From contig CAZCME010000012.1 of assembly GCA_964499705.1 (NCBI GenBank), positions 62,001 to 118,337 on the forward strand: a stretch of 56,337 bases of DNA. Direction: 5' to 3'. Positions within the stretch are counted from its first letter, which is position 1. The number at the start of each line of letters is the position of its first letter. The position numbers and the translations under genes are program-made. Positions 2,022 to 56,337 of this stretch are shown here, in pieces. The notes under the pieces were generated by a model. The model was given only the letters and a program-made list of their open reading frames with translations, was not told where the DNA came from and searched no databases. This stretch comes from an uncultured bacterium (GTDB taxonomy: Bacteria; UBA8481).

Positions 2022-2022
2022 G

Positions 2023-2810: not shown

Positions 2811-2828
2811 GGTCGGATCCCACGCCAG

Positions 2829-3512: not shown

Positions 3513-3532
3513 GCCCGTTGCTCCTTCGCTGC

Positions 3533-7243: not shown

Positions 7244-7264
7244 GTTGCTCTCACCTCTTCCCGG

Positions 7265-7320
7265 ATAGTAGATCCGCAAATCGTTAGCGGAATATTAGCG
7301 CCGTGTTAGATGTCGGTAAG
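7265..7320 (-). promoter_or_regulatory. Putative Pho-box promoter of the pst operon: four 11-bp-period repeats plus -10
   Basis: Minus strand reads CTTAC-cgacat-CTAAC-acggcg-CTAAT-attccg-CTAAC-12 nt-TACTAT. Plus-strand repeat starts are 7316, 7305, 7294 and 7283; -10 at 7270-7265. Confidence 0.7.
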
Positions 7321-18933: not shown

Positions 18934-19026
18934 GGGACGGGTGCTCATGGTCGCGAGATTCCGCTGAGAAATGGCGCGAACCGTGCTAGATTCCAGTCAA
19001 CTCAACAAGGGCGAGGTGATACCAGC

Positions 19027-23075: not shown

Positions 23076-23170
23076 GTGGAGAGTTTTATACTCTATTGCC
23101 AGTGAGTTGAAAAGCGGGCGATAATATCCAATGCGGTCGAGATGGATTCTCGGAGGAGAGGAATGAATCG

Positions 23171-24619: not shown

Positions 24620-24622
24620 CGG

Positions 24623-27153: not shown

Positions 27154-27172
27154 GGAACGGATCTTACAGATA

Positions 27173-28429
27173 CTACTGCAGAAGACGACGGACGCGGGCC
27201 ACCAGTTCGAGCGGAGAAAAGGGCTTCACGATGTAGTCGTCGGCGCCGAGCGAAAGCCCGCGCGCAATGGACTTGTCGCTTCCCAGGGCCGTCACCAGCA
27301 TCATCGGCACATGAGCCATGACCGGCAGCTTCTTGAGATTGGAAAGAAGCTCAAAGCCGTCCATTTCCGGCATCTGGACATCGAGAATGCAGAGCGAGGC
27401 ATTGGCCTGCGGAGCGGCTTCCAGGGCCGCTCGACCGTTTGGAAAATGGACAACATCGAAGCCTTCCTTCGTCAGCCGGTGCTGAACGAACGTCGCCAGG
27501 ATCTTGTCATCGTCGGCGAGGAGAATTTTCTTCTTCGGCACTTCCACGTTGTCCTTGTCGGAGATGACCATGTTTCTCCCCGCGGTCTTGGCCTGGTAGA
27601 GATAGCGGTCCGCCTCCGAAACGGCCTGGTCGAGCGTCGCATTGGCCTTGACCTCCGCGACCCCCGCGGAAAACGTGACGCGGAAAGCCTGGCCGGAGCT
27701 TGACGAGAATTCCGTCGCGCGGAGAGCTTCGAGCGATTTCATGAGCGCGACGGCGCCGGAAGGAGCATCCGCGTTCGGCAGGAGCGCGACGAATTCCTCC
27801 CCGCCCCAACGGGCGATCAGGTCCGTATCGCGCAACTGATTCGAGATGATGGACGTTCCCCGTCTCAGGACCTCGTCGCCCGCGGAATGGCCGTATGTGT
27901 CGTTCACGAGCTTGAAGCGATCGAAGTCGATGATGGCGATCGAAAGAGGAGTGCGCGTCCGCTGCCCCATCGCCTTCATCTGCTCGTAAGCTTCGGCGAA
28001 CGCGGCGCGGTTCGCGAGGCCGGTGAGCGCATCCTTCCTGGATTCGCTCGCCGACTTCCGGCGCCGGGAGAGGTGCGAGGAGATCGCCGCGCGGAGCACG
28101 CCGAGATCGAACGGCTTGACGAAATACGTGTCGATGCCGAGATTGAAGCACTGGATCTTGGCGGCCGAATCGTCGAGCGCGGAAAGGACGAAGACCGGCG
28201 TGTCGGCTGTCCGGATATTTTCGCGCATCCTGTCGAGGACGATCCGGCCGTCGATGTCGGGCAGACCGAGGTCGAGGAGAACGAGATCAATATCGCGCGC
28301 CTGCAGAAGCGCAAGCGCTTCCGTGCCGTTGGCGGCGAAATGGAGAGCTCGATCAGGTTCGGAGAGTTTCTCGCCAAGCAGCATGCCGATTGCCGGATCG
28401 TCGTCCACGATCAGAATTTCCGTCATCAT
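27173..28429 (-). CDS. Diguanylate cyclase REC-GGDEF-REC
   Basis: DALTGLANR, DFDRFKLVNDTYGHSAGD, RDTD I-site, RWGGEEF, ADRYLYQAKTAGRN; receivers at both ends. Confidence 0.92.
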   Translation of the reverse strand: MMTEILIVDDDPAIGMLLGEKLSEPDRALHFAANGTEALALLQARDIDLVLLDLGLPDIDGRIVLDRMRENIRTADTPVFVLSALDDSAAKIQCFNLGIDTYFVKPFDLGVLRAAISSHLSRRRKSASESRKDALTGLANRAAFAEAYEQMKAMGQRTRTPLSIAIIDFDRFKLVNDTYGHSAGDEVLRRGTSIISNQLRDTDLIARWGGEEFVALLPNADAPSGAVALMKSLEALRATEFSSSSGQAFRVTFSAGVAEVKANATLDQAVSEADRYLYQAKTAGRNMVISDKDNVEVPKKKILLADDDKILATFVQHRLTKEGFDVVHFPNGRAALEAAPQANASLCILDVQMPEMDGFELLSNLKKLPVMAHVPMMLVTALGSDKSIARGLSLGADDYIVKPFSPLELVARVRRLLQ

Positions 28430-28696
28430 GCCCCTTCCGCGGGATGAATCGAGGGGGAGCTATGAATGAGGTATTTGTCCGAAGCGCCCCTTCATGGTCA
28501 TCCCCATCGAAATCGCAGCACGACAGACTAATGCATCCGGCAGGTTCGTCAAGCCCTTCACGCGCCCTTGATCTCCGAAGGTTAAATGACCCCCAGGACA
28601 CCAGAAAATCACTCTTACCGATCCGTCATCGATCCGGGATCGCTCTTGGAGAAAATGGAATTCGCCGAGGCGTCGCTCGCAGGCGCGGCGAATATC

Positions 28697-30370
28697 TTAC
28701 TCCGGCGGCGCAGGGATCGAACCGAAATCCTTCACGAAGAGCGCACGGTCGAGATCTTCGCGGATGAGCCATTTGCACCCGACGCGCCTCAGGTCGAGCC
28801 GCACCTGGGTCGAATAGTCGCGCCTGGAATTGAGCGACGTATAGTTGATCGTCTGGCGCCAGTTGAACTTGACGATGAGGAATTTCCCCGGATTGACGAT
28901 CGTGATGTCCTCCGAATTCCACCGGCAGAATGACGTCGTCGTCCGGTTGAATAGGTCACGCATGGAATTGTCGAGCTCCTGGTAATCGCGGAAATCTTCC
29001 GCGGAGGAGATGTAATCGCGGTCGATGAGATTGAGAAGGGCTCGGCGGTCGTTGTTGAGATGAGCTTCCGCCAACTTATTGAGAAGCTCGCGGATCTCTT
29101 CGACTTGCGTCTTGTGGCGATAATGGATGACCTTCAGTTCGGGCACGAGATCGACCATCGTGCCGACGTTCGTCATAACCCGAATCCGCGCCACGAAGTC
29201 GCCATCCGCGCGAACCGGAATCTTGTATGAGAATGCGCCGGTCGCGGGATCGATGTTCAGAGGCACGTATGAGTCAGAAACCTTCGCCATAATCCAGGCG
29301 GCCGCGGGACGAGGAGTAATGACGCCCGTCCATGCCATCGTGCCGTCCGGCGCCTCCTCGCGGGTCCAACAGGCTTCCGGAGCGATCGATGCGGCGCGCA
29401 CGTCGTTGATGGCGAGGTTGGAGAGCGAATAACCGCCGGCGGAAACCGTCGACGTAGCGGATGCGCCGGATGAGACCTTGAAGGAGCCGAAGAAACCCGA
29501 AGTGATCTGGATCATCGATCTTCCGGCTGCGTCCTTCGGCATGACGGTCCAGTCGTACGACTGGCCGTCGACGAGCGGCAGACGCGCGTCGGCGGGATTG
29601 AATTCATATCGCGAGCCCGTCACGGTAGCCGTTGCGATCGTATTCTGCGACGTGAGCGGCGGGCGGGAGATGTAGATCTTGTAGCTCGCGGCGCCGGCGA
29701 GCGGCGTCCAGAAGAAATTCGGCTGCGCCGTATTCGCAACGAGCTTCGACTTTGGAACGAAGGGCAGCGAACTCGCCGGGCCCGTCGGCAGAGTGAGAGC
29801 GCCGGGCCATTGGGCCGGATCCGCTATCACGCCGAGAACCGGCGACTGCGGCGCGGTATCGAGCTTGGGCCTCGCCTTCTCCGTGTCGGCCTTTACGACG
29901 CTGAGGGTTGTATCCCCAACCACTCCCATGGTCACCGTCACCTTCGCCGTCGTGCGCTGGCCTCGCCCATCCGTCAACGCGACGATGTCGATCACGCCGC
30001 CTTGGGAACCGGCTTTGTAGATTCCCTGCGCGGCATCAATGGTCGCGCCGGACTTATTATCGAGGATCGTGAACGTCTGCGCGCCCGGCGTGGGGCGTCC
30101 TCCGGAGCTCGAATAGATCTTCGACGTGTTTCCGCCGCCGACGGCGAATGTAAACGACTGGCCGGGCGCAACGGTGACGGTTAACGGTGTGATGGTAAGC
30201 GGAGTCTTCTTCCGGAGCGTAACGCGCTTGACCTTCAGATCGCCCATCTGATTGTACGTGCCCTCGTCGAGAATCATGGCCTCGGGATGAGCGGCAATAA
30301 AGAGAACGGGAATCATGATCGCGACGCCGATTGTCCGGACGATCCTCCGGTGCAGACTTTCGTTCTTCAT
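28697..30370 (-). CDS. Secreted 557-aa protein: Ig/FnIII-like modules plus C-terminal NTF2-like domain
   Basis: Signal peptide; shared TIDAAQGIYKAG module; FFWTPLAGAASYKIYI...YDWTVMP FnIII-like segment; helix-then-strands C-terminus ending KWLIRE. The NTF2 call is inferred. Confidence 0.7.
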   Translation of the reverse strand: MKNESLHRRIVRTIGVAIMIPVLFIAAHPEAMILDEGTYNQMGDLKVKRVTLRKKTPLTITPLTVTVAPGQSFTFAVGGGNTSKIYSSSGGRPTPGAQTFTILDNKSGATIDAAQGIYKAGSQGGVIDIVALTDGRGQRTTAKVTVTMGVVGDTTLSVVKADTEKARPKLDTAPQSPVLGVIADPAQWPGALTLPTGPASSLPFVPKSKLVANTAQPNFFWTPLAGAASYKIYISRPPLTSQNTIATATVTGSRYEFNPADARLPLVDGQSYDWTVMPKDAAGRSMIQITSGFFGSFKVSSGASATSTVSAGGYSLSNLAINDVRAASIAPEACWTREEAPDGTMAWTGVITPRPAAAWIMAKVSDSYVPLNIDPATGAFSYKIPVRADGDFVARIRVMTNVGTMVDLVPELKVIHYRHKTQVEEIRELLNKLAEAHLNNDRRALLNLIDRDYISSAEDFRDYQELDNSMRDLFNRTTTSFCRWNSEDITIVNPGKFLIVKFNWRQTINYTSLNSRRDYSTQVRLDLRRVGCKWLIREDLDRALFVKDFGSIPAPPE

Positions 30371-30409
30371 CCGATGACCTCCCGACCATTCATGGCTATT
30401 TTCCGCCGA

Positions 30410-33229
30410 TCATTCATATTCAATCTCCGCCTCGTATCCCGGCGGCACTTCGATCTTCGTCACGGCACCGGCCTCCGCGCCGGGGAACTCGATCGTCGAT
30501 TCGTGCGCGCCGATGTCGAAAGTCGCCGCCTTTTGGCCTTCCGACGTCTTCCATTCGATATTCCCTGCTATCCCCGGAACTTTGTCGTCGGAATAATCCA
30601 GCGGATCCGTGCCGTCCTTCAACTCCTGGCCGTCCTTCACGCCGCTTCTGTCGGAATCCGCGAGCAAGGGATTGGTCTTATGTATGTTCACTTCGTCTCC
30701 GTCGGAGAGTCCGTCGAAGTCGGTATCGAGATAGAACGGGTTGGTGCCGAGCTTGACCTCATCGGTGTCGCTCAAGCCGTCTCCATCGGCATCGCCGAGA
30801 ACGCCGCCCGACTTGATGGATGCTGACGTCTGTGTCGTCGAGGTCGTATCGCCGGCGAGCCTCGCAAGGACGAGCGCGAGAGGAACCGAAACGGTATCCC
30901 CGCCCGGTGTCTTCGCGGTCAGGTCATCGCGGAAACGGATCGCGGCGAGCTGCTTGCTCAACGAGTCCCTCGCCACGATTCCGCCGGCGGTCGAACCTAG
31001 ATTCCTGTTCCCCGAAATCTCGTCCGCGAACTGCCGCACCGCGGGGATCACACCGCTCGGTCCGGCTTCAGCCGCGACGGCGAGATGGAAATTCGTCAGC
31101 TTCGCGGAATTCGGATCGGACATGTCGCCGAAGTCCGTCTTCGAGACATCGGCGCCGCCCGAGAGGCCGATCGCTTCTCCGACCCGCTCGTTCGTGGAAT
31201 TGATCTGCGATCCCGTGATCATGTTGTTCGGAATCGAATCCATCTTGTCCTTGATGATCTCGGACGCGATCGCGGTCGGGATGTTGAGCGAACACTCGAC
31301 GAGCGTTTCGCCGCGGCCGTTCGTCACCGCGGAGAGCGCTTCCGGAAGATTGGCATTGGCGCCGACGAACTCGTCCCAGAAGAGCCCGTCCGCCTCGATA
31401 CGCGTCGGACCGACCCAGGGACACCTCAGGAAGTATCGTCCATTGTCATCCAGAACTTCGCCGACGACGACCTTCGTCGGATCGTTGAGATACGTCGCCG
31501 TGACGACAGCGCCTTTCCGATACGGCCCCTGGAAGACGGTGCCTCCGAAGTCGCTGTACCGCCTGTCATTCTCCGCGTAGGTCTTGATCATTCCGCCGAG
31601 TTCCGCCAATTCGCCTACGACCGGAATGTCGAAGACTTCCGCTACCGTGCCGGTCACTTCCAGCGCGATGTCCCATCCGTCCGGTGGATTCTGGCCGACA
31701 TAGATCGTCGATTTCGCCGCGCTGTTCGCGTCCTTCACCGCGATCTCATCCTTGCCCTCCTCCGACCCGGCCATATAGATGACGTTCATGCCGTTCAGCT
31801 TGACCGCGCCGTAGGAATTGCCCTCCGCGCCGACTGTAATCTGGCCGGATCCGCCGCTGATCGTGAACGTCTGCTGTTGAAAGGAAGTCATTTGACGCTT
31901 GGATGGCGACAATGAAAGCGGCCCTGGCGGCGGCGGCGGTACATAGACTCGCTCCACCTTGACATGCGCATAGAGATAGGGAGAACCGGGGGATTTCACG
32001 ACGATGGCATTGGTGACGCTCATGGACTGTAAATTATCGGCGATGTTCTTGGCGGTGAATTGGCCGGAGGGCGTGATGGATCCGATGTATTCGGCGCCGC
32101 TGTTCATGGAGAAGGTAATGGCTGAACCGGGACGTCCTCCCGTTGTTCTGAAATTGAAGACTCCGCCCGGGTTCAGTGTCGCCGTGGCCTGTTCGAGCCC
32201 GAGAGGAGGAGGCGCCGGAGAGATATAGATCGTCCGATCGGCCGTCCCTTTGACTTGGCCATCCTGCATATCCTTCACGCGAATTTTCGCCTGGGACGGG
32301 GCATTCGGACCGGCCTTGAAACTACGATTGGACGCACTGAAGCTCCCGCCCGATCCATCGGAAATGAGTTCCCAAACTTTCTGAGCTCCCCAGCCGCCGG
32401 TATGCCAGAAATAAGTCTTCTCGCCCGACTCCAGGTTCGACTGCCCTACTTGGATATCGAGAGGCTCCGTCATCTCGACCCAGGCCTCGCCCATGGCGCC
32501 GGCCTCGTCGAACGAGTAGATCTTCACCATGGCGCCGGCGATTTTCCCGGCGGTGTATGTGCCGTCGGCCGCGATCGTCCCTCGCCGTTTGGGATCGGTG
32601 CCGGAATACGGCTCGTTGAACGCGTAGGTGATCTTTCCGTCGCCGCCCGTCACGGTATATTTCTGCGTCTTGCCGCAGTTGAGACGCGCGGAAGCAGGCT
32701 CCATCTTCAAAGGCGGCGGACGAACGATATAGAAGTCGATCATCCAGGAATAGTCGTACTCGACGAGCGCAATGCCGTTGAACAGGACCTTCACCACCGT
32801 GTTGTATCCGACGATGGCGCAGTTCTTGGGCATCGCGACCTCGACCGTGATCACGGTCTCCTGGTTCGGAGCGAACGTCGCGGTCTGCTCCGGGCCTTTG
32901 ATCACATTGCTGTACCAATCCTTCACCGAAACGGAGAGCTGAGCGTCGACGCTCGCGCCGCCGAGGTTGGAGAATGTCAATGCGAGCTTGACCTTGCTGC
33001 CGGGAATAAAGGCCGGGAAGCCGTTGTCGTTCTTCTGCGGCGGATCGACGACTGCGATCGATTTCAGATAGATCTTGGGCTTCTCGACGCTGAAGACCGG
33101 GAACTCCGCCCCGTTCCTGATCGTGGGAGCGGCGTCAGCCGGGCCAGAAGATGCGATCGCCAGAAGGCAGGCCATCATCGCAACGACGAGGTGTATTCGT
33201 CGTCCTCCAGTCACGTTTCTCATTTCCAT
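30410..33229 (-). CDS. Secreted ~938-aa multidomain surface protein with C-terminal DxDGDG Ca-binding repeats
   Basis: Signal peptide (…MACLLAIASSGPADA); Ig-like modules; QGPYRKGAVV…ADGLFWDE…NIPT domain; three DxDGDGL-type repeats. Start is 33229 or 33223 (ATGA overlap). Confidence 0.8.
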   Translation of the reverse strand: MEMRNVTGGRRIHLVVAMMACLLAIASSGPADAAPTIRNGAEFPVFSVEKPKIYLKSIAVVDPPQKNDNGFPAFIPGSKVKLALTFSNLGGASVDAQLSVSVKDWYSNVIKGPEQTATFAPNQETVITVEVAMPKNCAIVGYNTVVKVLFNGIALVEYDYSWMIDFYIVRPPPLKMEPASARLNCGKTQKYTVTGGDGKITYAFNEPYSGTDPKRRGTIAADGTYTAGKIAGAMVKIYSFDEAGAMGEAWVEMTEPLDIQVGQSNLESGEKTYFWHTGGWGAQKVWELISDGSGGSFSASNRSFKAGPNAPSQAKIRVKDMQDGQVKGTADRTIYISPAPPPLGLEQATATLNPGGVFNFRTTGGRPGSAITFSMNSGAEYIGSITPSGQFTAKNIADNLQSMSVTNAIVVKSPGSPYLYAHVKVERVYVPPPPPGPLSLSPSKRQMTSFQQQTFTISGGSGQITVGAEGNSYGAVKLNGMNVIYMAGSEEGKDEIAVKDANSAAKSTIYVGQNPPDGWDIALEVTGTVAEVFDIPVVGELAELGGMIKTYAENDRRYSDFGGTVFQGPYRKGAVVTATYLNDPTKVVVGEVLDDNGRYFLRCPWVGPTRIEADGLFWDEFVGANANLPEALSAVTNGRGETLVECSLNIPTAIASEIIKDKMDSIPNNMITGSQINSTNERVGEAIGLSGGADVSKTDFGDMSDPNSAKLTNFHLAVAAEAGPSGVIPAVRQFADEISGNRNLGSTAGGIVARDSLSKQLAAIRFRDDLTAKTPGGDTVSVPLALVLARLAGDTTSTTQTSASIKSGGVLGDADGDGLSDTDEVKLGTNPFYLDTDFDGLSDGDEVNIHKTNPLLADSDRSGVKDGQELKDGTDPLDYSDDKVPGIAGNIEWKTSEGQKAATFDIGAHESTIEFPGAEAGAVTKIEVPPGYEAEIEYE

Positions 33230-36200
33230 GTCACGCTCACCTTCGCCTTGTACTTGCCGTTCGCGGCGGTCGTGGGGAGCTGGAAGGCGAACTTGACGGG
33301 CGTGGTTCCGTTCGCGGAAGCCGAGCCCGTGAAATCGCTCTTCGAGAAGACGGTCGTGCCGTCCGGCGTCATGATCGTCAGCGCGGCGGTGAAATTGCGC
33401 GACTGGGAAGCGGAGTTCAGGACGTTGAATTCGCCGCTCACGTTGCTTCCCTGTGTGTAGATCTTCAATGCTCCGGCATCGGCATTCTCAGCCGAACCCG
33501 ACGAAAGAATCTCCACGCCGTCCGCCGCGGCCTCGACCTTGCCTCCCTTATTGTTCGCCGTCACGACGCAGGTGACGAGCACATTGGGACTCGTGCCGAG
33601 TTCTTCCTTCGTGGGTTGATACCAGCTTCCCGTTTTGCCGGGCACGTCCGTGCCTTCGATCTGCCAGCGGTAGCTGTAATAGATCGACGGATCGCCTTTC
33701 CACTTGCCGCTAGTGCATTGCAGCACGCCGGGCCAGTTCGGATAGAAGGAGACGACGGGCTTCTCGACATTTTCTGGCTTGTCCACCGCGATCGTAACGG
33801 AATCGGTCGTAACCGATGCGCTTCCGCCTCGCTCGCTCGTCGCCGTCACCTTGCAACTGATCGGCTCCATACCGACCGCTTCGGTCACCGCGTAGGAAGC
33901 ATCGGTGGCGCCGGAGATGGGATAGTATCCGCGCATCAACCACTGATATGTGTATGTGAGGGTTCTGTCGCCCGTCCACTCTCCGGGATTGCAGGTGAGA
34001 ATCGATCCGATCTTCGGCTTGCCGGTCATCGTCGGCGGGCTCTTGTTCACCGTCGGCTCGACGGTGACGTACACGCCTTTCGTCATGACGATTACCTTGG
34101 CTCCCGCATTCTCAGCCGTCACCTGGAGAGTGATCGTCTTTATACCGTCATCCGAAGTCGTCGTGTAGGTCTTTCCGTTCGCTCCGCTGATGACCTTGCT
34201 GTCTGCAAACCACTGGTATGTATAGACGATCGGCGGTTCGCCGGTCCATGATCCCACGTTGCCGGTCAGGGTCTGCCCGACTTTCGGATCGCCCGTGATA
34301 TAGGGAACGGAGCTATTCCTCGGCTTCTCCACGGAAACGGTGACGGCGTTCGAGCTCACCGATTTGGTGTTTCGGGAATTGGATGCCGTGACGCGGCAAC
34401 TGATCTTCTTTCCGAAATCCTCCTGGACGACCACGTAGAACGGATAGGTCGCGTTCGCTATATCCTTGTCCTCGCGCACCCACTGATATTTATAGGTGAT
34501 CGTCGGATCCCCGGTCCAGTCTCCCCGATTGCAATTCAGATCCACTCCGACAAACGCCTCGTCCGGGACGGTGGGCGCAACCGTGTTCGCGATCGGAATG
34601 ACGTTCACTTTTACGGCCGCGGTCGTCACGGCAACGGTTCCGGCGCCGTTGACACCCGACACCTTGCAGGAGATCGATTTGGTCGCGTCGGCGTCCACGA
34701 CGGTGTAAGAGTTGGAGGTCGCTCCCGTAATGGCGGCGTTATCGCGGAGCCACTGGTATTGACAGACGACAGAGACGTCATTGTCCCATCCGCCTTCACT
34801 GCACCTCAACCGCTGGCCGATATTGGCCGTGCCCGAAATGACCGGCAGGGCGGTGTTCTTCGGCTTCGTGACGACGACCTTGATGGCCGTGGTCTTCGCC
34901 GTAGCCTTGCCGATCGCATTGGATGCGGTAACCGCGCAACTGATCATCTTCTGAGCATCCGGTTCCATGACGGCATAGGAGGGATAGGTCGCGCCGACGA
35001 TGTCCTTGTCATCGACCTTCCACTGGTACGTATAGGAGTTCGACGCGCCCCCGGTCCATTCGCCCGGAGCGCAGGTCAAGGTCTGTCCGATCACCGTGGA
35101 TCCAGAGATCGTCGGCAGGACTACATTTGCCGGCGCCATGAGCTTGAACGGTATTTCATTCGAAAGCATCGCTGTTTGTCCGCCGTCGTTGATGGCCGTC
35201 ACCCTGCAGGAGAGCTTGCCGGGAATCACGTCCGACGTGAGGGTGAATGTTTTGTCGGTCGCTCCGGCGATTTCCTGGCCGTCCTTCAACCACTGATACT
35301 GAAAGATCGGAGGAGGCGGCTTTCCTTTCCAATATCCTTCATTGCAGTACCAAGTTGCTCCGGCGACTTTACTCTGAGCCGGGATCATGTTCTGAATCAT
35401 GTCCGCCGACATCATCATCAACATGCTGCCGCCAAACTCACTGTACCAGATGGTCGGCTTATCCGACGCGTTCCGGAGCTCTGGTTTCGGGATCGTGTAG
35501 CCGGGAATTTCGACCGTGAAGATTTCAGGCGCTCCATAATCGGCATTCGCATCGCCGGGCACTTCATTTCTTACGAGCTTCATGAAATACCTTCCAGGCA
35601 CGGCACTGGTCGGAATTGTCAGACTGATCTCATGCTCCAATTTCTGACCGGGGGAAATGGTCAGGTTGGAAGTCTTTCCCTTGATGATTTCCAAGTAGGA
35701 CAAATTGTAAATGAAATAATCAACATTGAAGACTTTAGTGATGTTCTTGTTTGATTTGATGGTGATTCTGCACTTCGTGGTCATGCCGGGCTTGACGATC
35801 GAATCCGTCGCGTTTGCACCCAGGATATTGATATGGCCTGAGGTGTTCGGCGTATAGGACCAATGCCCAATAGTGAAGACTTCGGCTTCCGGAGTTTTCA
35901 TCGGATTCGCGATAACCCTCCATTCACCACCGGCGGGACGAGCCTTCAGCGTCACGCGCCCTTTATAAACTCCATAAATCACGGGCTTGGGATATTCGAA
36001 TTCGAATGGCACGGTCATGAATGTGGCGCTCACCGTTGCCTTGATGGGAATCTTCTTCATCACCTCAAGATTCAGATTCAGCACGGAGAGTTCAAGTTCG
36101 ACCTCCTGGGTCACGCCGGAGAGATTTTGGATGACGATTCCGCCGTGAATCACATACCGCTCCATTCCCTCGCGGAATCCCTCGTCGAAGTTCTTGATGG

Positions 36201-39200
36201 AGTCGACCCTTACATCCACCGCCTCGGAATTGATGGAATTGCTGATCGCGGAACTTGCGCCGCTCGAGTTGGTCCCGGTCACGCGGCAAGTGATCTGCTT
36301 ATACGCGGTGATGGCCCCCACGATGTACGAGGCCGCGTTCGCTCCGGGAATTTCCGAACCGCCCGCGAGCCATTGGTACGAATAGAAGATGGTCGGGTCG
36401 CCGGACCAGGCGTTGGGCTTGCAGGTAAGCGTGCCCCCGATCTTCGCGTCGCCGCTGATCGAAGGAAGCGTGGTGTTTGCGGGCTTCTGCACCGTGACCG
36501 TGACCGGTTCGCTTGTCGCCAAAGTCTGTCCGCTGGGATTCTTTGCGGTCACCTGGCACGTGAGAGTCTTCAGGGCGTCCGCTTCGGTGACGGTGTATCG
36601 CGCCGATGTCGCGCGGGAGATCTCGACTCCGTCGCGGAACCACTTGTACGTGAGCGTCATATCGAGATCGTTCAACCAGGCGCCGGGATCGCAGGAGAGG
36701 TTCGCGCCGATCTTGACCGCGCCTGCGATGGACGGAAGGACCGAGTTGAAGGGCGCAGGAGCCGGAATGGCGACTCCGGCGGAGATCGCCGAGGTCTGCC
36801 CGACGTCGTTCGTGGCCGTCACCTTGCAGGTCAGCGTCTTCAAGGCATCGGCCTGAACGGGCGTGTAGGTCGAGCTGATGGCCTCGGGAATATCGACGCC
36901 GCCGCGCTGCCATTGATAGGTATAGCGGATCTGCGCGAAATATCCGTAGGTCGCTGTGGAGTTTCCTTTCCAGCTGCCGTTGTCGCAGGTCAGGAGTGCG
37001 CCTACGCGATTCTCGCCGGTGATAGCCGGAAGCGCTGTATTGGTGGGCGCGGTGCCTGAGGGAATGGTGAGGGTGTCGACGGTCCTGGCGAAAACATAAA
37101 CCTGGGCGCCACCACCGTCTTTAACCACGATCTGGTGCGAGGCGCCGGATTTCTGATCCTTCGCCGTATACAGCCCGGTCTTCTCGTCGATGGTGCCTTG
37201 CCCTGCATAATACCCGGAAAAAGCAAACTTGTAATTGCCGTCGCCTCCGGACGCCGTAAACTTGACCGTCTTGCCAGGCAGGACTTCACCCAAGACGGGC
37301 GAGACCGTCAAAGGCGCCATGGCGAGCGTATTACGAACGTTGATTTTCATGATACATTGACCGCCGACGGCGTCCCTTACATAAACCTCGTCCGTTACGT
37401 TGCCCTTCGTCCCGGCCTTATAAACACCCGTCGTCGCGTTGATCGATGGAGCGCCCGATTGGGCCCATTTCATTTCGTACTTATACGGAGGAGTGCCGCC
37501 TGTTGTGACGAAAGTTGCCGTTCCACCCGGCAAGACCTGTTGCCACTCCGGAGTGGCGAGCAGCCACTTATCAATGGGCTGTTCTTTCGATACGACCACG
37601 GTGTCGAGTCCATCGTACGAGAACGCGAGCGTAAAACTCAGGGTGCGACCGCGGTCCTCCGGTTCAACTTTTCGAAACTGCTGGGTGGCGCCCGGGATAT
37701 CTTTACCGTCCCGACGCCATTGATAGGAATAAACGGTCGGTGGATAAAAACTCCAGACGCCATTATCGGCCCGGAGCTGATTCTCAGGACGGGTAAATAC
37801 GCCCCAGACATAGGGCAGTGAAGTATTGGTGGGCAGAACTCTCGTCCTTGCCACCGTGAATTTCGCTTCACAGCGGGCGCCTTTCGCATCGACGAATTGA
37901 ACTGCAGCGTTAAAGTCGTACTGGGTCCAGGAATAAATTCCGGCCGTGTATTCTCCCGTGGTGGCGTCGATCTTTCCAAGTGGAGATGAGCCCGACATGG
38001 AGTAGGTGTATGGCGGGGTACCGCCTTTCGCGACGAACGTGAACTTCTCGCCCCCCTGCAACAATGTCGGCACGGATGCGAACTTGAGCGGCGACACCGC
38101 CGCCGTCACTACAGACTGGCTTCCCGAAGAGTTCGTCCCGGTGACGCGACAACTGATACTGTGCCCCAGGTCTTCAGCCGTGATTTTCCATTTCCGATCC
38201 GTGGCGCCGGATATTTCAACACCGTCGCGCAACCATTGGTAGGATTGAATAACCTGCCAATCCCCGGTCCAGGTTACATTGCTGCAGTAAAGCGTGTTGT
38301 CGAGACTGGCATTGCCGCTGAGAGTCGGCAGGTCCGTGGTTGAAGGCTTCCTGAAGGTTTCGGTGAGCGGCTTGACCGTGAAGATCTCGAACTTCTCGCC
38401 GGAATTGTATTCGTGGAGGATCGCACCTGCTGCGTCCTTCAGTATCGCCGTAGCCTTGTACACGCCCGTCTCGGCATTCGCCGGTATGGCGCACTGATAT
38501 GCAAAGGCTGCCGGATCGCCGGAGACCGGAATATTCTCGGACTTGTTCCACGTGTTGATCACGCGGCCGCTCGGGCTCGCGAAGTTCATCTCGACGACGG
38601 CGGGTTGAATCTTCGTCGACCACGCGTCGAGATAGATCTTTCCAACCGCGGTTTTGCCGGGATGAATGAAGAGATCGTCGGACTTCACATCCGTGATGAG
38701 ATGCGTGATCGTCGTCGATGGGGCGGGGGTGAGCTTGAAGAGATCGCTCGCCGACGTCGAGGCAACGATCGTGGGAGCGCCGGCCCAGGACGCCTTCACA
38801 TTGACCTGCGCCTTGTACTGACCTGCGGGGGCCGACGCGGGAACCTTGATCGTGAAGCGGATGGCCGACTTTCCACCGGCCGGCACGGAACCCGTCAGGC
38901 CCGGCAGGGAGATCGACGAGAATCCGGACGGCCCCTGCACCGTCAATGTCGCATCGACGGCCTGGTCGTTCGCGCCGGAATTCTTCACGAGGATCTCGCC
39001 GGTGATCTCCTGTTCCGCGCCCGCGGGATAAGACGATTTTCCCGTCGTGACGGCGTCGATGTCGATGGTCGGTCTGACCTCGACCGCGCTCGTGGTCGCC
39101 GGTGCGGCGCCTCCCGCGTTCGAGGCAATGACGCGGCACGATATTTTCGATCCGCCATCGGACGGCTTGAGCAGGAATGTCGATCCGGTCGCGCCGGAGA

Positions 39201-45200: not shown

Positions 45201-48200
45201 CCGAAAGTCCGTCCTTATCTGTATCGCGATCGAGATCGTCTTTCGGATCGGTCGGGTTCGTGCCGTCGGCTACTTCCTGTCCGTCAGGCGTTCCGCTGCC
45301 ATCCGAATCCATGTTCTTCGGATTCGACTTGTATGTGTTTATTTCGTCGCCGTCCGAGAGCCCGTCTCCGTCGGTGTCGGGGTTGTTCGGATCCGTGCCG
45401 CGCTTTACTTCTTCGCTATCCGACAATCCGTCGCCGTCTGTGTCGGCCTTTGTTAAGTCGGTTCCGATTTCTATTTCTTTGCGATCGGAGAGCCCATCCT
45501 TATCCGAATCGCCATCCAGATCGTCCTTCGGATCCGTCGGGTCCGTCCCGTCTTTGACTTCCTGACCATCCAGAGTTCCGCTTCCATCCGTATCCTTCTT
45601 CAGCGGATCGGATTTGTGCTTGTTGATCTCATCGCCGTCCGACAAACCATCGCCGTCGGAATCGACCTTCTTCGGATCCGTGCCGCGCGCGACTTCATCG
45701 GAATCGGTCAGGCCGTCGCCATCGGTGTCCTTCTTAGTAGGATCGAGGCCGAGCTCCTTCTCTTTCCGATCGGACAACCCATCGCCATCGGTGTCGCGTT
45801 CGAGGTCATCCTTCGGATCCGTAGGATCCGTGCCATCTTTGACTTCCTGGCCATCCAGCGTTCCGCTTCCATCCGTATCCTTCTTCAGCGGATCGGACTT
45901 GTGCTTGTTGACCTCATCGCCGTCCGACAAACCATCGCCGTCAGAATCGACCTTCTTCGGGTCCGTACCGCGCGTGACTTCATCACCATCCGACAGGCCG
46001 TCACCATCCGTGTCCGCCTTCTTCAGATCGAGATCCAGTTCTTTTTCTTTCCGGTCCGACAGCCCATCCTTGTCCGTGTCGCGTTCCAGATCGTCCTTCG
46101 GATCGGTCGGGCTCGTGCCGTCGGCTACTTCCTTCCCATCAGGTGTGCCGCTGCCATCCGAATCCAACTTCAGAGGATCGGATTTGTGCTTGTTGACCTC
46201 ATCGCCATCCGACAAACCATCGCTGTCGGAATCAACCTTCTTCGGGTCCGTGCCGCGCGCGACTTCATCGGAATCCGATAACCCATCGCCGTCCGTGTCT
46301 TTCTTCGACGGATCTGTGCCGAGTTCTTTTTCCTTCCGATCAGACAGCCCATCGCCATCGGCGTCGCGCTCGAGGTCGTCATTCGGATCCGTCGGGTCCG
46401 TGCCATCCTTAACTTCCTGGCCGTCCAGAGTTCCGCTTCCGTCCGTATCCTTCTTCAGCGGATCGGACTTGTGCTTGTTGACCTCATCGCCGTCCGACAA
46501 TCCATCGCCGTCGGAATCGACTTTCTTCGGATCCGTACCACGCGCGACTTCATCGGAATCGGTCAGGCCGTCGCCGTCCGTGTCTTTCTTCGACGGATCT
46601 GTGCCGAGCTCTTTTTCCTTCCTATCCGACAACCCATCGCCATCTGTGTCGCGCTCGAGGTCATCCTTCGGATCCGTCGGGTCCGTCCCATCTTTAACTT
46701 CCTGCCCGTCCAGAGTTCCGCTTCCATCTGTATCCTTCTTCAGCGGATCGGACTTGTGCTTGTTGACCTCATCGCCGTCCGACAATCCATCGCCGTCGGA
46801 ATCGACTTTCTTCGGATCCGTGCCGCGCGCGACCTCGTCCGCATCTGAAAGCCCATCGCCGTCCGTGTCCTTCTTCGTCAGATCAAGGCCGAGTTCCTTT
46901 TCCTTCCGATCGGAAAGTCCATCGCCATCGGTGTCGCGTTCGAGGTCATCCTTCGGATCCGTAGGATCCGTGCCATCTTTGACTTCCTGGCCATCCAGCG
47001 TTCCGCTTCCATCCGTATCCTTCTTCAGCGGATCGGACTTGTGCTTGTTGATCTCATCGCCGTCGGACAAACCGTCGCCATCGGAATCAACCTTCTTCGG
47101 ATCCGTGCCGCGCGCGACTTCATCGGAATCCGTCAGGCCGTCGCCGTCGGTGTCCTTCTTCGTCGGGTCCAGTCCGAGTTCCTTTTCCTTCCGATCGGAA
47201 AGTCCGTCGCCATCGGTGTCGCGCTCGAGGTCGTCCTTCGGATCCGTCGGATCCGTGCCGTCCTTGACTTCCTGGCCGTCCAGCGTTCCGCTTCCGTCCG
47301 TATCTTTCTTCAGCGGATCGGACTTGTGTTTGTTGACCTCATCGCCGTCGGATAGACCATCGCCGTCCGTATCCAATTTCCTCGGATCCGTGCCGCGACG
47401 CGCTTCCTCGATATCGTCGAGCCCATCGCCATCGGCATCCCCAACGATCTCGACTGTCGCTTCGGCGATATTCCCGTCTTCGTCCGTTACGCGGATCACA
47501 TCCTGCACGGCCGACGTCGAGCCCGACGTGTATGTGCCGTTGACGCGATCAATGCTCCCGCCGGAACGATTCGTGGAAATAGCATACGAGCGCTGCCCGA
47601 CTCCGCCGGAGGACGAGAAAGCAAGCGTTCCACCGGTCGCGACGGAGTCGGACAAAGGCGCCAGCGTCAGGCGCGGCTTCACTTCGATCCTGACTTCGAC
47701 GTACTTGCCGCTTTGATCCGTGACGCGGACGACATCGGTCGCATCGGACTTCAAGCCGGCGGTGTATTCTCCCGTAACCGGATCGATTTTGCCGCCCGAC
47801 CTGTCATTTGCGATCGAAAATACGAGATCGCCAAGACCTCCCTCGGCCTTGATCGTCATGACCGACCCGGACATCGCCTGATCGGTCGCCATCGAGAGCG
47901 AAAGCGGCTGCGCGACTTTGATCGCGGCCTCCTGCGTGTTGCCCGCTTCATCCGTTACGCGGACGACATCCGCGACGTCGTATTTCGTTCCCGCCGTGTA
48001 ACGTCCTGTTACCGGATCGATCGATGCTCCGGAGAGATTCTTCGCGAGCGAATAAGCGTATCGCTCGCCGCCGCCGACACCGACGAACGTGATCGACTGC
48101 CCGGGAAGAACGTTCGCGGATTTCGGAGCGATCGAGAGTGCTCCGGTCGGAACCACGACGAGGATCGAAATCGTCGGATCGAATTCGGAATAGAGCTTCG

Positions 48201-49302: not shown

Positions 49303-49304
49303 GA

Positions 49305-52300
49305 TCAGCGGATAATCGCCAGCTTGTCGGTGAAGCGCCGGTTGCCGGTGGAGTTGCCGATGTCGATGATATAGATGTACGCGCCCGTCCCGATCGCGAT
49401 GCCGCGATCGTTCTTGCAATCCCAGGCATACTCCGTCGGGAACGTGTTCAGGTCGACGTAACGATCGAGCACGCGCCGGCCGGAGAGATCGAATACGCGC
49501 AGGCGGAGCTGACCGCCGGCGGGCACATTGTATTTGAACCGGACATTTCCATCAGCGGCCGGGCCCGGATTCGGATAAGCAAACGTCTGGTTCTGATCGA
49601 GCTGTTGGCCGAGGAGCGTCCGGACGGCCGCTTCCGTTCCCACGACGATCCGGAACGAACGCGCGGTAGCGCCCGACGACGCATACGAATAGTTCGGCGA
49701 CGCCTTCACGTCGGTGATCTCGTTCGACCCGAGGTCGACGAGCCGCACGACGAAATCCGCGGGAAGATTCGAGAGCTCACCGAACTGGAGACCGACCGTC
49801 GTGTCCGAAGCGGAGGGTGTTACCGAGAAGAGCCAGACATTGGCGCTCGCGAACGGCGCGCGGAGATCCTGAGCGAAGGCGGCGCCTGAACCAAGTCCCG
49901 ACGCGAGTCCGTTTCCTAGCGGTGGAGGATTCCCGATGTCGAGCGCGAAGTCCGAGTTCTCCGTTGCGGTCGGCGAGACTCCAAGATAGTTGACCGTCGT
50001 CGCGCCGGAGGACGCGCTCGAAGTCACCTTGATCCTCCAGTCGGTCACGTCGCCCGCCGCTTGCGCGGACGCGAGCGTCGAGGTCGTCGACTCGGAGTAG
50101 TAGAAGCTCGGCGAGAGGCGAAGCGTCGCGTTCGCGGCGGCGTAGATCCAGAAGCCGTTCCAGGGCGAAAGAATCGGATCGGCGTTCGTGGAGTTCGGGC
50201 CGAACTGGTACGCGTTGTTCTTGTACCAGAAGACCTTGTTCACGATGACGCCCTGCGCTTCCGCTTCCGCGAGTGAGAGATTTGCTCCGCCAGTCGTGAT
50301 GATCCGCGCGGCGTTGTATTGCGTCAGATACGCGAAGGGCGATCCGAGCTGGTTCCAACCGGTCCTCAGTGCGATATCCGCCGTGTCAGTCTTCAGCGTC
50401 ATGCCCGTGACCGTCAAACGCGGCGACGTCACTTCATACAGGAAATAGCCCTGGCCCTGTTCGAGTGTCGTCGGGATGACGTACTGGAGATTCTTCGCGC
50501 TCGAAGGCGCGACCGGATCCCAGTGGAAGATGTTCGCCGGGCTGATCGAGAGCGCCTGAGCGACATTGCTGCTGGTCGGCGCGCGCAACAAGGCGATCAT
50601 GTTCCATTGATTCGCGATAACATCGAATTCGTTCGTCTGGTAGCAGAGGTAGATCGGCGAGATGCCCGGCACGGAGACCTTCAGGACGTACACGCCCGTC
50701 TTGTCGCCCGCTTTCAGGATCACGGTGCATCGCCCATTCGAGTCCGTGGCGGTGCGGACGAACGTGTCTCCGGTCGCACCCGTCGGCCGCGCCACGATCG
50801 AGACCGCGACGAGATAATTCGGCACGCCGATTCCGTTGGAGTCCCGGACGATGAAGCGCGACGAGTCGCTCGCGAACGTGTTGGGCGAGAGGATGAAGGT
50901 CTGCGAATCGACGAGCGTCAATAGACGCGGTGTATCCGCGTAGATCGTGAAGCTGCGCGAATCGATCACGCCGCTCGCATTACCGAGTCCGTCGGTGCAG
51001 ATGAGATCGGCGCGATACACTCCGATGATTAGGGCGGAATCGACGGTAGCCGATAGACCGGAGGTTTCATAAGTAAGAAGCGTCGATGAATCCGAGAGCG
51101 ATCTTACGGTGATACGATAGCTCGCGACGCCGTTCGAATCCGTCGCGGCTGTCCAGCGGATCGTCGGCAGACGAACGGCGGTGTCGCCGATCGTCAGGAC
51201 CGATCCCGTGGGCGCCAGAGTGTCGAGCCGGACAAGAATCGAGTCGGAGAAAGATGCGCCTCCGACGTGGCGCGTGATCTGGACCGCGACCGTGTTGTTG
51301 TACACGATCACGTTCGCGACGGTGAACGTCCGCGTCTCGTTCACGCCGGTCATGATCTGCGTCTCGATGACGGTGTTGTTCACGATGAGGCGCACCGTGT
51401 CGCCTGCTGTGCCGCTGTCGATCGCGGCGCGGAGCGAGAACGTTGTGACGCGCGTGTCGATCGGCGATGTCGCCTGGATCCGGACGCGCGAGATATCCGG
51501 CAGGATATTGAACGACCGCGAGTCGACGTTTGAGTTCGTGCTCCCGAACGCATCCGTGCACGCGAGATCGGCGCGGTATGATGCCACGGCGAGCGGAATC
51601 GTACAGGCTGCGGATAAGCCTGATGTGTCGAAGGCCATCAGGACGGAAGAATCCGCGAGCGACCGGAGCGTCACGCGATAAGCACTGACACCGTTAGAGT
51701 CCGTCGCGGCCGTCCACCGGAATGTCGGCGTGGAGACGACCGTGTCGGAGATCGAGAGCACCGAGCCGGAAGGCCCGGCGGTGTCGAGCCGGACGAGGAT
51801 CGAATCGGAGAAGGACGCTCCGCCGGTATGCCGCGTGATCTGGACCGCGACCGTGTTGTGGTACACGATCACGTTCGCGACCGTGAACGTCCGCGTCTCG
51901 TTCGTCGCGGCAAGGATTTGCGTCTCGATGACCACGTTATTGACGATGAGGCGAACCGTGTCACCCGCCACACCGCTGTCGATCGCCGCTCGAAGCACGA
52001 ACGATGTCGATCGCGTGTCGACCGGCGAGGTCGCCTGGATCCGGACGCGCGATGTGTCGGGATAGACGTTAAAGGAACGCGAGTCGATATTCGAATTCGT
52101 GTTCCCGAGCGCGTCCGTGCAAGAGAGATCGGCTCTATACAGCGTAACGGCCAGGGGCGTCGTGCAGGTCGCGGAGAGCCCCGAGGTATCGAAGGCCATG
52201 AGGACCGACGAATCCGCAAGCGAACGGAGCGTAACGCGGTACGCCGCGATGGCATTTGAATCCGTCGCCGCGGTCCAGCGGAACGTCGGCGTCGCAACGA

Positions 52301-55300: not shown

Positions 55301-55811
55301 GGGTGGCAAAGAGCGTGTCCGCGCCCGCCACGCACATCGCGCTGCCGTCGAAGATGTTTCCAGGAAATTGGGCCATCGTATCCCATTGATTACGACTGAT
55401 CGAATAGGAGTAGAAGGGACGAGTCGTCCCCCCCTTTGTGGCGAAGAGGGAGTCGCCGGAACCGGGGTAAACGAGCGTCGCGCCGTTCGCGATGGCGGTC
55501 GGAGTGGAGTCGACTTGCGACCACGTGTCCGTGCTGATCTGATAACGAAAGACGGTTCGTGTGCCTCCGCCGCGCAACTGAAACAATGTATCGGTTCCGG
55601 CGGCGGCGGTATTTCGTCCCGAATTGGCGCCCCCGATCGTAGCAGGCGGCGCGGCAAGGCTCGACCAGGTGTTCCCGACTGCGGCAGCCGGCGCGGCAAA
55701 CCACGAAACGGACGAAATACACGAAAGAAGAACAAAGGCATAAGATAAAAACCTATGATCGGATTTCTTTCGTGTATTTCGTCTATTTCGTGGTTCGATT
55801 TTCTGATTCAT
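49305..55811 (-). CDS. 2168-aa secreted protein: Kelch-like beta-propeller, Ig/FnIII repeats, C-terminal T9SS type-A/FlgD-Ig-like sorting domain
   Basis: Signal peptide; repeated GG…FYRY.IS.N.W blades; five ~187-aa repeats; GWNQLGSPF domain; C-terminus AYPNP…LRVFDLSGRRV…WDCKNDRG…GAYIYII…KLAIIR. TGATG coupling to the upstream gene. Confidence 0.88.
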   Translation of the reverse strand: MNQKIEPRNRRNTRKKSDHRFLSYAFVLLSCISSVSWFAAPAAAVGNTWSSLAAPPATIGGANSGRNTAAAGTDTLFQLRGGGTRTVFRYQISTDTWSQVDSTPTAIANGATLVYPGSGDSLFATKGGTTRPFYSYSISRNQWDTMAQFPGNIFDGSAMCVAGADTLFATRGNGTAFFYRYRISGNVWDTMANAPATILNGASLTYPGSGDFIYALGGSSTTFYRYSISANSWSTLTPYPVAVATGSSLIFGPDGFMYGVRGFTGTDFFRYTVTTDSWTRLANSPSAFSDGSGLTYPGTGLFLYAIRGGNTSNFSRYLFQTTPDTPTSLAQTKLDSTLVSVGGFISDSSSIRFAVQANDLSDTCRIQIELRTVSAAFTSPVDVTVDSAIFFQSAFSAVAGGETLNIIADSLASASYHWQVRVVDASGDSTGWVRFGSNTENPPTNPAAADFIIGTVSTGLFPASLRISDSASAIITDTDRNANAGVTETVSVTVTNNRTGESETFQMTEQSANSSRFGGNDTLPLSSNTADNGTNSGRLFVLAGDTVTIRYVDPSIPTDSIASGNITVSHDSVASAGTFPSSIRLAESVSAVIRDTDQNFSGIRVETVSITITNNRTGESESLTISENGANAGYFGGNDSLSLSASAADSLSNSGRLFALTGDTISIRYIDPTDATDSAVSGNITVTTTGVDTPRIRFLTTSPIDTRSNSFAIRISIDSAVRGDSVRLFVNNVNIETQAMTDSAETRTFTINVGTNLNTAVIQITRQSLGDTFTDSISIRFDTVVPSGSVLTITDTLVTTPTFRWTAATDSNAISAYRVILRSLADSSVLMAFDTSGLSATCTTPLAIGLYRADLSCTDALGNTNSNVDSRSFSIVPDTSRVRIQATSPIDTRVTTFALRAAIDSAVAGDTVRLIVNNTVIETQIMTGVNETRTFTVANVIVYNNTVAVQVTRHIGGASFADSILVRLDTAGPLGSVLTISDTIVTTPTFRWTAATDSNGVSAYRVTLRSLADSSVLMAFDTSGLSASCTTPLAVALYRADLACTDAFGNTNSNVDSRSFSILPDTSRVRIQATSPVDTRVTTFALVAAIDSAVVGDTVRLIVNNTVIETQIMTGTNETRTFTVANVIVYNNTVAVQVTRSVGGSSYADTILVRLDTVAPTGSVLSIVDTVVATPTFRWTAATDSNAIAAYRVTLRSLADSSVLMAFDTSGLSATCTTPLAVTLYRADLSCTDALGNTNSNIDSRSFNVYPDTSRVRIQATSPVDTRSTSFVLRAAIDSGVAGDTVRLIVNNVVIETQILAATNETRTFTVANVIVYHNTVAVQITRHTGGASFSDSILVRLDTAGPSGSVLSISDTVVSTPTFRWTAATDSNGVSAYRVTLRSLADSSVLMAFDTSGLSAACTIPLAVASYRADLACTDAFGSTNSNVDSRSFNILPDISRVRIQATSPIDTRVTTFSLRAAIDSGTAGDTVRLIVNNTVIETQIMTGVNETRTFTVANVIVYNNTVAVQITRHVGGASFSDSILVRLDTLAPTGSVLTIGDTAVRLPTIRWTAATDSNGVASYRITVRSLSDSSTLLTYETSGLSATVDSALIIGVYRADLICTDGLGNASGVIDSRSFTIYADTPRLLTLVDSQTFILSPNTFASDSSRFIVRDSNGIGVPNYLVAVSIVARPTGATGDTFVRTATDSNGRCTVILKAGDKTGVYVLKVSVPGISPIYLCYQTNEFDVIANQWNMIALLRAPTSSNVAQALSISPANIFHWDPVAPSSAKNLQYVIPTTLEQGQGYFLYEVTSPRLTVTGMTLKTDTADIALRTGWNQLGSPFAYLTQYNAARIITTGGANLSLAEAEAQGVIVNKVFWYKNNAYQFGPNSTNADPILSPWNGFWIYAAANATLRLSPSFYYSESTTSTLASAQAAGDVTDWRIKVTSSASSGATTVNYLGVSPTATENSDFALDIGNPPPLGNGLASGLGSGAAFAQDLRAPFASANVWLFSVTPSASDTTVGLQFGELSNLPADFVVRLVDLGSNEITDVKASPNYSYASSGATARSFRIVVGTEAAVRTLLGQQLDQNQTFAYPNPGPAADGNVRFKYNVPAGGQLRLRVFDLSGRRVLDRYVDLNTFPTEYAWDCKNDRGIAIGTGAYIYIIDIGNSTGNRRFTDKLAIIR
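50940..53740 (-). repeat. Five tandem ~187-aa (561-bp) repeats
   Basis: The RVRIQATSP motif recurs at 53161, 52600, 52039 and 51478 (561-bp spacing), plus a diverged first copy (RIRFLTTSP, ~53725). Confidence 0.92.
55699..55795. repeat. 31-bp inverted repeat (29/31 match, 35-bp spacer) with 9-bp ACGAAA subunits, inside the signal-peptide coding region
   Basis: AACCACGAAACGGACGAAATACACGAAAGAA (55699-55729) versus TTCTTTCGTGTATTTCGTCTATTTCGTGGTT (55765-55795). Confidence 0.88.
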
Positions 55812-56337
55812 CAGAAGATCACCTTCAGCCCGATCGTCGTCGTCAGCCGGTCATGGTCGCTCGCCTTCGCGTCGAACTGGTTGATCTCGTAATCGCTCCG
55901 CAGAGTCAACGTATTCTTGAACGGCCCGTTCTCGCTTGTGTACCCGAGGTCCAGCGTGAACCGGTCCTTCGTCGTGTCCTGCGCCTTCACCGTTCCGCGC
56001 TTCAGGTCCCGGAGATAATCGAATCGCGCCGAGAGCCTTTCGCCTTCGTGCCCGAGCGTCCCGCCGAACGTCGAGAAGCGGTCCTGCTGGTTGCCCTGGT
56101 CCTTGGCGCGATAATTCGCCTTCAGCTCCACCTTCAGCCAGTCCCAGAGCGTCTTCGAGACGGAGTTGTCGACCTTCCACTCTTCCGTCGTCAGAAGCGT
56201 GTTCAGAAGGCGATCCTTCTCGCGCTCGACATCGAAACTCGCGGAGACCGTGTAGATCTCCCAGAGCGTATTCTTCACGCCGGTCGTCACCTTGAAGTTG
56301 TCTCGATTGCTTCCCGGTGTCGTGCCCACGACGACGA
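55811..56337 (-). CDS. Outer-membrane beta-barrel protein, C-terminal part (5' truncated by window)
   Basis: Alternating amphipathic strands (LKVELKANYR, LSARFDYLR, FTLDLGY) and a terminal IGLKVIF with C-terminal Phe (BAM-type signal). Confidence 0.65.
   Translation of the reverse strand, partial: VVVGTTPGSNRDNFKVTTGVKNTLWEIYTVSASFDVEREKDRLLNTLLTTEEWKVDNSVSKTLWDWLKVELKANYRAKDQGNQQDRFSTFGGTLGHEGERLSARFDYLRDLKRGTVKAQDTTKDRFTLDLGYTSENGPFKNTLTLRSDYEINQFDAKASDHDRLTTTIGLKVIF

Follow-up and report, generated by a model that had tools for sequence, protein, structure and literature searches.

How could a protein of several thousand amino acids (aa) be exported and held at the cell surface when it carries none of the known export tags? 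This question is raised by a locus of an uncultured bacterium (lineage UBA8481; assembly GCA_964499705.1, 96% complete, hereafter G000), located in a window of 56,337 nt whose end is also the end of contig CAZCME010000012.1 (C12). Minus-strand genes of this window encode the 3' part of a large outer-membrane barrel and four further proteins, A to D (Table 1). A has a type IX secretion system (T9SS) tail, and B is a tail-less giant. We propose, with a probability of about 0.5, that B, C and D are joined into a chain by strand complementation and that this chain docks on the large barrel and is probably also exported by it, in a manner resembling an usher but with neither usher nor chaperone.

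According to this proposal, B, C and D would each cross the inner membrane by means of their signal peptide (Sec export). The extension of C would supply the strand that is missing from the last domain of B, and the start of D would complete the terminal half-domain of C. The chain would then leave through the large barrel, the order of the genes giving B at the tip, C, and D at the base. The NTF2-like domain of D could stay in or under the barrel as a plug or stopper, thereby holding the chain, and calcium might stiffen the repeats of B.

Table 1. Features of the operon (window positions unless contig C35 is named; strand in brackets)
Feature	Position	Residues or size	Description
Small PorV-like barrel	C35 16449-17369 (+)		upstream of large barrel
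Large barrel, 5' part	C35 17186-19100 (+)		remainder of barrel beyond C12 end
Large barrel, 3' part	55811-56335 (-), listed 55811..56337	174 aa	open at contig end
Protein A	49305-55811 (-)	2168 aa	Kelch propeller, Asp/Thr-rich beta repeats, conserved ~440-aa region, T9SS-type tail (Pfam Kelch, TIGR04183)
Conserved end of A	49305..50933 (-)	aa 1627-2168	sole part of A retained in distant loci
Protein B	33220-49302 (-)	5360 aa from its ATG	signal-peptide-like start, no T9SS tail
TSP3-type acidic repeat block of B	40723..47439 (-)	about aa 622-2860 (about 2,240 aa)	PF18884
Immunoglobulin (Ig)-like stalk of B	33523..40668 (-)	aa 2879-5260	at least 16 repeats of ZirU type, interspersed with domains of NEW3/MG2 type and with shared modules
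Last domain of B	33220..33519 (-)	aa 5262-5360	NEW3/MG2-like Ig domain ending before final strand; likely acceptor for extension of C
Protein C	30410-33229 (-)	939 aa	N-terminal extension, NEW3-like domain, 4 shared modules, conserved ~250-aa domain, TSP3 repeats, 53-aa terminal half-domain
Extension at predicted mature N-terminus of C	33086..33130 (-)	aa 34-48, about 13-15 residues	likely donor strand for B
Terminal half-domain of C	30413..30571 (-)	53 aa	likely acceptor for N-terminal segment of D
Protein D	28697-30370 (-)	557 aa	N-terminal segment, shared module, two beta domains, C-terminal NTF2-like domain
N-terminal segment of D	30197..30289 (-)	aa 28-58	likely completes half-domain of upstream gene's product
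NTF2-like domain of D	28736..29110 (-)	aa 421-545	likely docks on large barrel

Cut domains at the B-C and C-D junctions

The original prediction, made from the sequence of the window, held that B ends in a plain beta domain. Its last domain is instead cut short: it spans positions 14-91 of a 117-position profile, the last 26 positions being missing, and the nine domains used for training (from B, C and a 2053-aa protein of genome G043) reach position 116. The missing part would correspond to the final strand. C, for its part, carries an extension that precedes its own complete domain and whose first four residues are those found after the cut point in the closest intact paralogue of B. The same arrangement is found on contig C29 of G043, where a B-like gene cut at the same residue is joined by an ATGA overlap to a C-like gene with the same extension. 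When the two pairs are compared, 62 of 98 residues are identical in the last domain of B, against 41-42% over the other aligned parts, and 9 of 13 in the extension, against 31/110 (28%) in the adjacent domain (binomial P 0.003-0.013). Across this genome and the loci scanned, just two open reading frames (ORFs) have the cut ending and just two the extension, as neighbours both times, and the N-terminal 140 aa of C are matched in 2 of 401 genomes, this one and G043. On G043:C29 (14.3 kb) the pair is flanked by large barrels, and neither A nor a small barrel is present on the contig, both ends of which fall within barrel genes; the C-like protein of the pair itself carries an NTF2 domain and abuts a large barrel.

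At the second junction, the terminal 53 aa of C recur only at the C-terminus of the giant encoded by a paralogous operon on contig C14 (blastp E 7.6e-4), and a profile of the half-domain finds only C and this giant among the 27882 ORFs of the genome. The N-terminal segment of D is likewise present in the C14 paralogue of D and at the N-terminus of P0009; among the same ORFs, its profile finds just the two D proteins, each of which follows a half-domain gene. The other paralogous operon, on contig C9, has a D without donor segment and is also devoid of the half-domain. Neither half has a Pfam family match; a possible likeness to beta-gamma-crystallins found no match in Pfam either. The co-assembly put forward in the original prediction has thus gained specific support for B, C and D, in the form of the cut domain, the extension and the paired halves, all of which are features of the sequence.

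The large barrel, its NTF2-like partners and the operon

The 3' part of the large barrel is 84% identical to a full-length paralogue at C9:115692-117998. A model of the latter, built with 8 sequences (predicted local distance difference test score (pLDDT) 74, predicted template-modelling score (pTM) 0.44), contains an alpha/beta domain of LptE/CsgG fold and about 26 strands by manual count. The alpha/beta domain (model residues 1-152) matches LptE, CsgG, FlgT and DUF330 chains (Z 12-13.6, root-mean-square deviation (rmsd) 2.5-3.7 A); the Pfam LptE model gives E 7.5e-4 to 0.04, under cut-off, and the shared fold shows no function. In a fold search with the barrel model, LptD, MtrB and SlpA are ranked first, with template-modelling (TM) scores of 0.37 at most, which point to a size class and not to a family. 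No Pfam or NCBIfam model matches the barrel or D over cut-off, no sequence match to either is found in the PDB, and the barrel and its relatives have no Pfam match to the intimin/invasin barrel domain. Two identities are rejected: the barrel is not the LptD of the organism, as the sole PF04453 match is another gene (C1:88034) and PF19838 has none, and it is not an usher, PF00577 having 0 matches in the genome with a positive control in E. coli.

This barrel is rare, with 7 proteins in a 90% collection and 17 representatives among 1.84 billion. It is present at full length in 5 of 401 genomes, this one included, and gives any match (E 1e-8) in 18 of them; it is not found in the four closest genomes (86-96% complete). 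One locus (L018) belongs to a record titled Candidatus Lindowbacteria. Matches from the atlas, all below 0.9, are leads only. Scans with barrel alignments recovered one locus each, and a contig scan with D alone recovered none.

Eight full-length barrel loci were compared by blastp and by profiles built from them, three in this genome (C35/C12, C9 and C14) and five in others (G043:C41, G257:C51, G098:C56, G098:C61 and G362:C60). Synteny is conserved, as would be expected from the original prediction: a D homologue is found in 7 of the 8, an A-type region in 7 and a small barrel in 5. D is absent at G362:C60, D-like pieces of this genome being on other contigs, and the A-type region is absent at G098:C61. 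The C9 and C14 operons each contain a small barrel, a large barrel, a tailed A-like protein, a tail-less giant and a D homologue, with giants that differ (about 6,000 aa on C9, 7,544 aa on C14). Other genes accompany the C9 giant: a DUF1016/YhcG nuclease-family gene lies between D and the giant (L003:7632-8792), and two unnamed helical secreted proteins flank it (L003:8792-9781 and G000:C9:144234-145931). The two also follow the homologue of this giant in G043:C41 (L014:9821-12317), and they could be dedicated partners of the giant. Several genes of the paralogous operons, namely those of C14 at 29918-32329 and 24840-29960 and those of C9 at 115692, at 117962 and upstream of D, have similar low-complexity leaders (ICNLK..QITNYKL-like) before the hydrophobic signal region.

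The association of barrels with NTF2-like domains extends beyond D. The model of D (pLDDT 60; aa 1-185 below 50, and therefore silent on the donor segment) superimposes its C-terminal domain on solved NTF2-like domains with an rmsd of 2-3 A over about 120 residues. A profile of six NTF2 seeds other than D, one of which comes from this genome, finds 11 of 27,882 ORFs, 9 of them within six barrel-superfamily loci and all three D included; when that seed is left out, the figure is 8/10. In G362:C355 and G211:C73, barrel and NTF2 belong to one fused protein, the NTF2 domain following the last barrel strand in one frame. Among 15 weaker barrel matches, nine were examined, several of which had also served as NTF2 seeds; an NTF2-like domain is adjacent or fused in seven and not detected in G216 and G062. 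FecR-like domains also recur on barrel partners, with none in B, C and D of the window. At C1:379890-397113, C4:174922-185281 and C6:232319-237577, a shorter member of the barrel superfamily is paired with secreted proteins bearing FecR and/or NTF2 domains; some of these partners have beta-helix-like ends, and small NTF2 proteins are present. A FecR-like gene of the G098 cassette (L045:7040-7972) weakly matches the LapA retention module and the LipL45/Lsa33 models, always under cut-off.

As to B, its TSP3 block holds 90 DxDxDG-like motifs and 24 super-repeat markers spaced by 95 or 73 aa, and would bind calcium, as expected for its family. Its stalk scores 216 bits on the ZirU model (NF040485, cut-off 100). 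Matches to CglD and MtsD are set aside as matches of the TSP3 repeats only. B-type repeats and the domain of C occur fused in single polypeptides in G362:C313 and G043:C41. On the latter contig, the 2053-aa B/C-like protein (L015:5150-11308) has a signal peptide followed by a ubiquitin-like domain (Rad23 model, E 7.8e-13).

The five minus-strand frames of the original prediction are all present, and its four junctions are read directly in the sequence. These are: (i) TGATG at 55811 between the barrel and A, (ii) a 2-nt gap (49304-49303) between A and B, (iii) between B and C, a first ATG of C lying 10 nt within B and a second one (33223) in an ATGA overlap, and (iv) a 39-nt gap between C and D. 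The signal-peptide-like starts ascribed to A, B, C and D are found again, as basic then hydrophobic N-termini, with a hydropathy heuristic that detects no later membrane-like segments in these proteins. The sharing of modules by three proteins is borne out as well, B, C and D containing 7, 4 and 1 copies of a beta module of ~80 aa, and TSP3_bac repeats being common to B and C. The five-ORF extent was however too short, as the operon runs on into contig C35. The ends of C35 and C12 have 54 exact bases in common, and in two of three public runs contigs continue from C35 into C12 for 10 and 28 bases, below the 31-base bridging standard; one of these runs may be the source sample. The six-gene order is thus likely to be small barrel, large barrel, A, B, C, D. 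No frameshift differences from other assemblies are listed over the part compared (44000-56337 and the C35 end). The region is partly present in six of seven listed public runs, the two best being labelled groundwater metagenome, and no RNA run is listed among those containing it. Between 27000 and 34500, 0 sigma-70-type promoters are found for 2.2 expected, a result that is uninformative on transcription.

Other genes of the window surround the operon. Downstream of D, at 20610-28429 (-), are a GGDEF response regulator, a HEAT-repeat protein, a family-2 glycosyltransferase, an unmatched 460-aa frame and a hybrid kinase, which could form a polysaccharide cluster linked to cyclic di-GMP beside the fibre operon. 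Further away are genes for phosphate uptake and its regulation (binding protein, permease, ABC ATPase, PhoU, response regulator and kinase; 978-7279 (-)) and a cluster of CHAD, histidine phosphatase and PPK2 genes (17477-19830 (+)).

The chain weighed against other readings

Several points weigh against a chain exported by the large barrel. The extension of C does not resemble intact final strands above chance (profile score 3.5, a value attained by 240 of 2999 ORFs; shuffle p 0.24; local match p 0.08). For B and C the case consists of two pairs, and shared ancestry can conserve a junction without binding; for C and D it consists of two pairs in one genome plus P0009 without context, and the proposed unsplit C-D form in G043 reaches only E 0.28. 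Neither pair of halves is present at the C9 locus, although a giant is. No usher is found, nor, among the proteins of the locus, a pilus chaperone that could stabilise a cut domain before assembly. The giant is present in just 4 of the 8 close barrel loci, two close loci in G257 and G098 being without it, which suggests that the fibre is a variable cargo and not a fixed subunit. Confidence in the barrel model is low overall, by both its pTM and its best TM-score. Finally, the genome also has a SprA-like translocon, through which export could take place.

This last point leads to the main rival, which we hold to be unlikely: the chain would form but leave via the SprA-like translocon with tailed A, the large barrel being only a surface dock. 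The genome has matches to several elements of a type IX system. A single SprA-like frame (2168 aa, on C5) scores 97.8 bits for a cut-off of 200, PorV has 9 matches, some genes exceeding the PF19572 cut-off, and the T9SS tail model has 25 matches, 20 of them over cut-off. The PorU sortase has 15 matches, none over cut-off and all confined to model positions 937-1094 of 1095, the tail region; the motor component searched for, PorM/GldM, gives no match, control genomes being equally silent. As foreseen in the original prediction, A alone among the proteins of the operon has a recognisable sorting tail (TIGR04183, 25.9 bits for a cut-off of 23, aa 2079-2160). A therefore carries the sorting domain required of type IX cargo, and no tail model matches B, C or D.

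The neighbours of A can be read in favour of this route, since the A-type region accompanies the large barrel in most close loci and cognate cargo-shuttle pairs are known in Flavobacterium: in the part of the source available, F. johnsoniae has type B C-terminal domain cargo with a cognate PorP/SprF shuttle (PMC12618676). The small barrel matches the PorV/PorQ model NF033709 below cut-off (29 bits, E 7.6e-7, cut-off 90). It is present in all five loci where A has a T9SS tail and is not found in two where A ends otherwise, and A and a small barrel occur without large barrel on the stretches read in G003:C3 and G098:C233, both near contig ends. Because of this co-occurrence and of this separate occurrence, A and the small barrel behave as one pair. 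They are read as a second, T9SS-like cargo-shuttle pair, a variant of those already known, which usually travels with the large-barrel unit and would be displayed beside it.

Against the SprA route, the A-like gene next to the barrel lacks a T9SS tail in both G043:C41 and G362:C60, the B-like and C-like genes of G043:C29 stand with barrels on a stretch devoid of A and small barrel, and no segment common to A and B is found. By eye, 0 of 10 ORFs with the shared ~80-aa module have a T9SS-type tail. The original prediction had made the tailed subunit an exporter or anchor of the fibre. Its tail is confirmed, but this role is now less well supported, given the A and small-barrel pairs without large barrel and the B-like/C-like pair without A.

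Some features of A stand apart from this comparison. In G043:C41 and G362:C60, the T9SS tail of A-like proteins is replaced by a different short tail, which contains Cys (L013:7349-10159 and L048:7344-10229) and resembles a CFI-box sorting signal, a label for which NCBIfam gave no match. The ~440-aa region that precedes the tail of A forms the end of about 20 G043 proteins, the longest having 9,114 codons, and looks there like an extended sorting region of no named family, and it was accordingly rejected as a cassette-specific adaptor. In this genome the conserved region of A is restricted to the three operons and one partial match, and it has no sequence match in the PDB beyond the tail.

It is also conceivable, though improbable, that the barrel-NTF2 unit tethers the outer membrane to peptidoglycan or serves as the plug of a small-molecule or glycan channel, B, C and D then being passengers on the periplasmic side or unrelated ones. 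By general barrel topology, an NTF2 domain placed after the last barrel strand lies in the periplasm or the lumen, and the fused forms should thus have it on the periplasmic side. Small NTF2 proteins of a single domain, with lipoprotein-like starts, lie beside distant barrels, and the close loci of G257 and G098 without giant would be consistent with such a function, as would the binding of peptidoglycan by the NTF2 domain of Pgp2, described in the available part of PMC8038945. The TSP3 and invasin-like Ig repeats of the 5360-aa protein would nevertheless fit a surface fibre better than the periplasm, and the barrel is patchy, with none found in the four closest genomes; a separate LptD is also present.

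The least probable reading is that of a shuffled cluster of secreted adhesin-like genes without assembly, whose cut domains are relics of old gene splits: fused forms, the non-significant likeness of the extension to intact strands, giants differing between loci and the DUF1016 gene interrupting the C9 locus would agree with it, but, in a comparison of two lineages, the cut domain and the extension are better conserved than the sequence around them, every piece has its own signal-peptide-like start, and the halves occur only as neighbours.

Relation to known systems

The proposed barrel-docked chain has partial counterparts. In type 1 pili, the N-terminal extension of a subunit completes the incomplete Ig-like fold of the preceding subunit, as stated in the part of PMC6615685 available. 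The likeness to chaperone-usher pili lies in the polarity of donor strands, which would be the same for B and C, and in a large, plugged barrel within the operon. The differences are the lack of any match to the usher family (FimD/PapC), the multi-domain nature and size of the subunits (557-5360 aa), joints of two unrelated kinds, and LptE/CsgG-fold and NTF2-like domains where usher domains would be. A PapD-type periplasmic chaperone is absent from the proteins of the three operons scanned, the search having been limited to these. ZirT is an inverse-autotransporter barrel that secretes separately encoded Ig-like proteins (ZirS/ZirU) from its own operon, according to the accessible part of PMC4943183, and the stalk repeats of B score on the ZirU model; the barrel described here has, in contrast, no intimin/invasin match and about 26 predicted strands, and no substrate chain is described for ZirT in that part of the source.

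Many large barrels hold soluble plugs, LptD being a 26-stranded barrel around the LptE plug (PMC13048289, available part). LptD-LptE and MtrB-MtrA resemble our system in being the top fold matches of the barrel model and, for the former, through the LptE fold of the barrel N-domain. They differ from it by the low TM-scores, the absence of sequence match and the fusion of the LptE-like domain to the barrel; moreover, the true LptD is encoded elsewhere and the operon contains no cytochrome. The resemblance to T9SS cargo with a cognate shuttle lies in a tailed protein encoded beside its own small barrel, that is, A and the C35 barrel. Here, however, the tail is type A-like and the barrel PorV/PorQ-like below cut-off, unlike in the F. 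johnsoniae pair, and B, C and D are tail-less, PorU is matched over its tail region only and the SprA-like gene is below cut-off.

The barrel-NTF2 unit and its clipped passengers thus fall within neither T9SS cargo, chaperone-usher nor inverse autotransporter systems, and their mechanism would be of another kind. The original prediction had not recognised this architecture, and our literature searches, from which supplements and most subscription journals were outside scope, gave no description of such a system either. We tentatively suggest, as a possibility that we do not favour over its contrary, an undescribed secretion and display system in several poorly known lineages, in which an outer-membrane barrel of ~26 strands, containing an LptE/CsgG-fold domain, and NTF2-like plugs would export tail-less passengers, and split domains would join giants head to tail in gene order (about 6,850 residues for B-C-D).

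As both joints are of small size (about 99 + 15 and 53 + 31 residues), their binding is open to study in vitro, with no need to grow the organism, and they might find use as tags for coupling proteins. If the proposal is true, it would reveal natural split-domain clips between large proteins, a barrel family without family or structure match and, for the organisms that carry it, a route for the export and anchoring of giant proteins devoid of known export tags.

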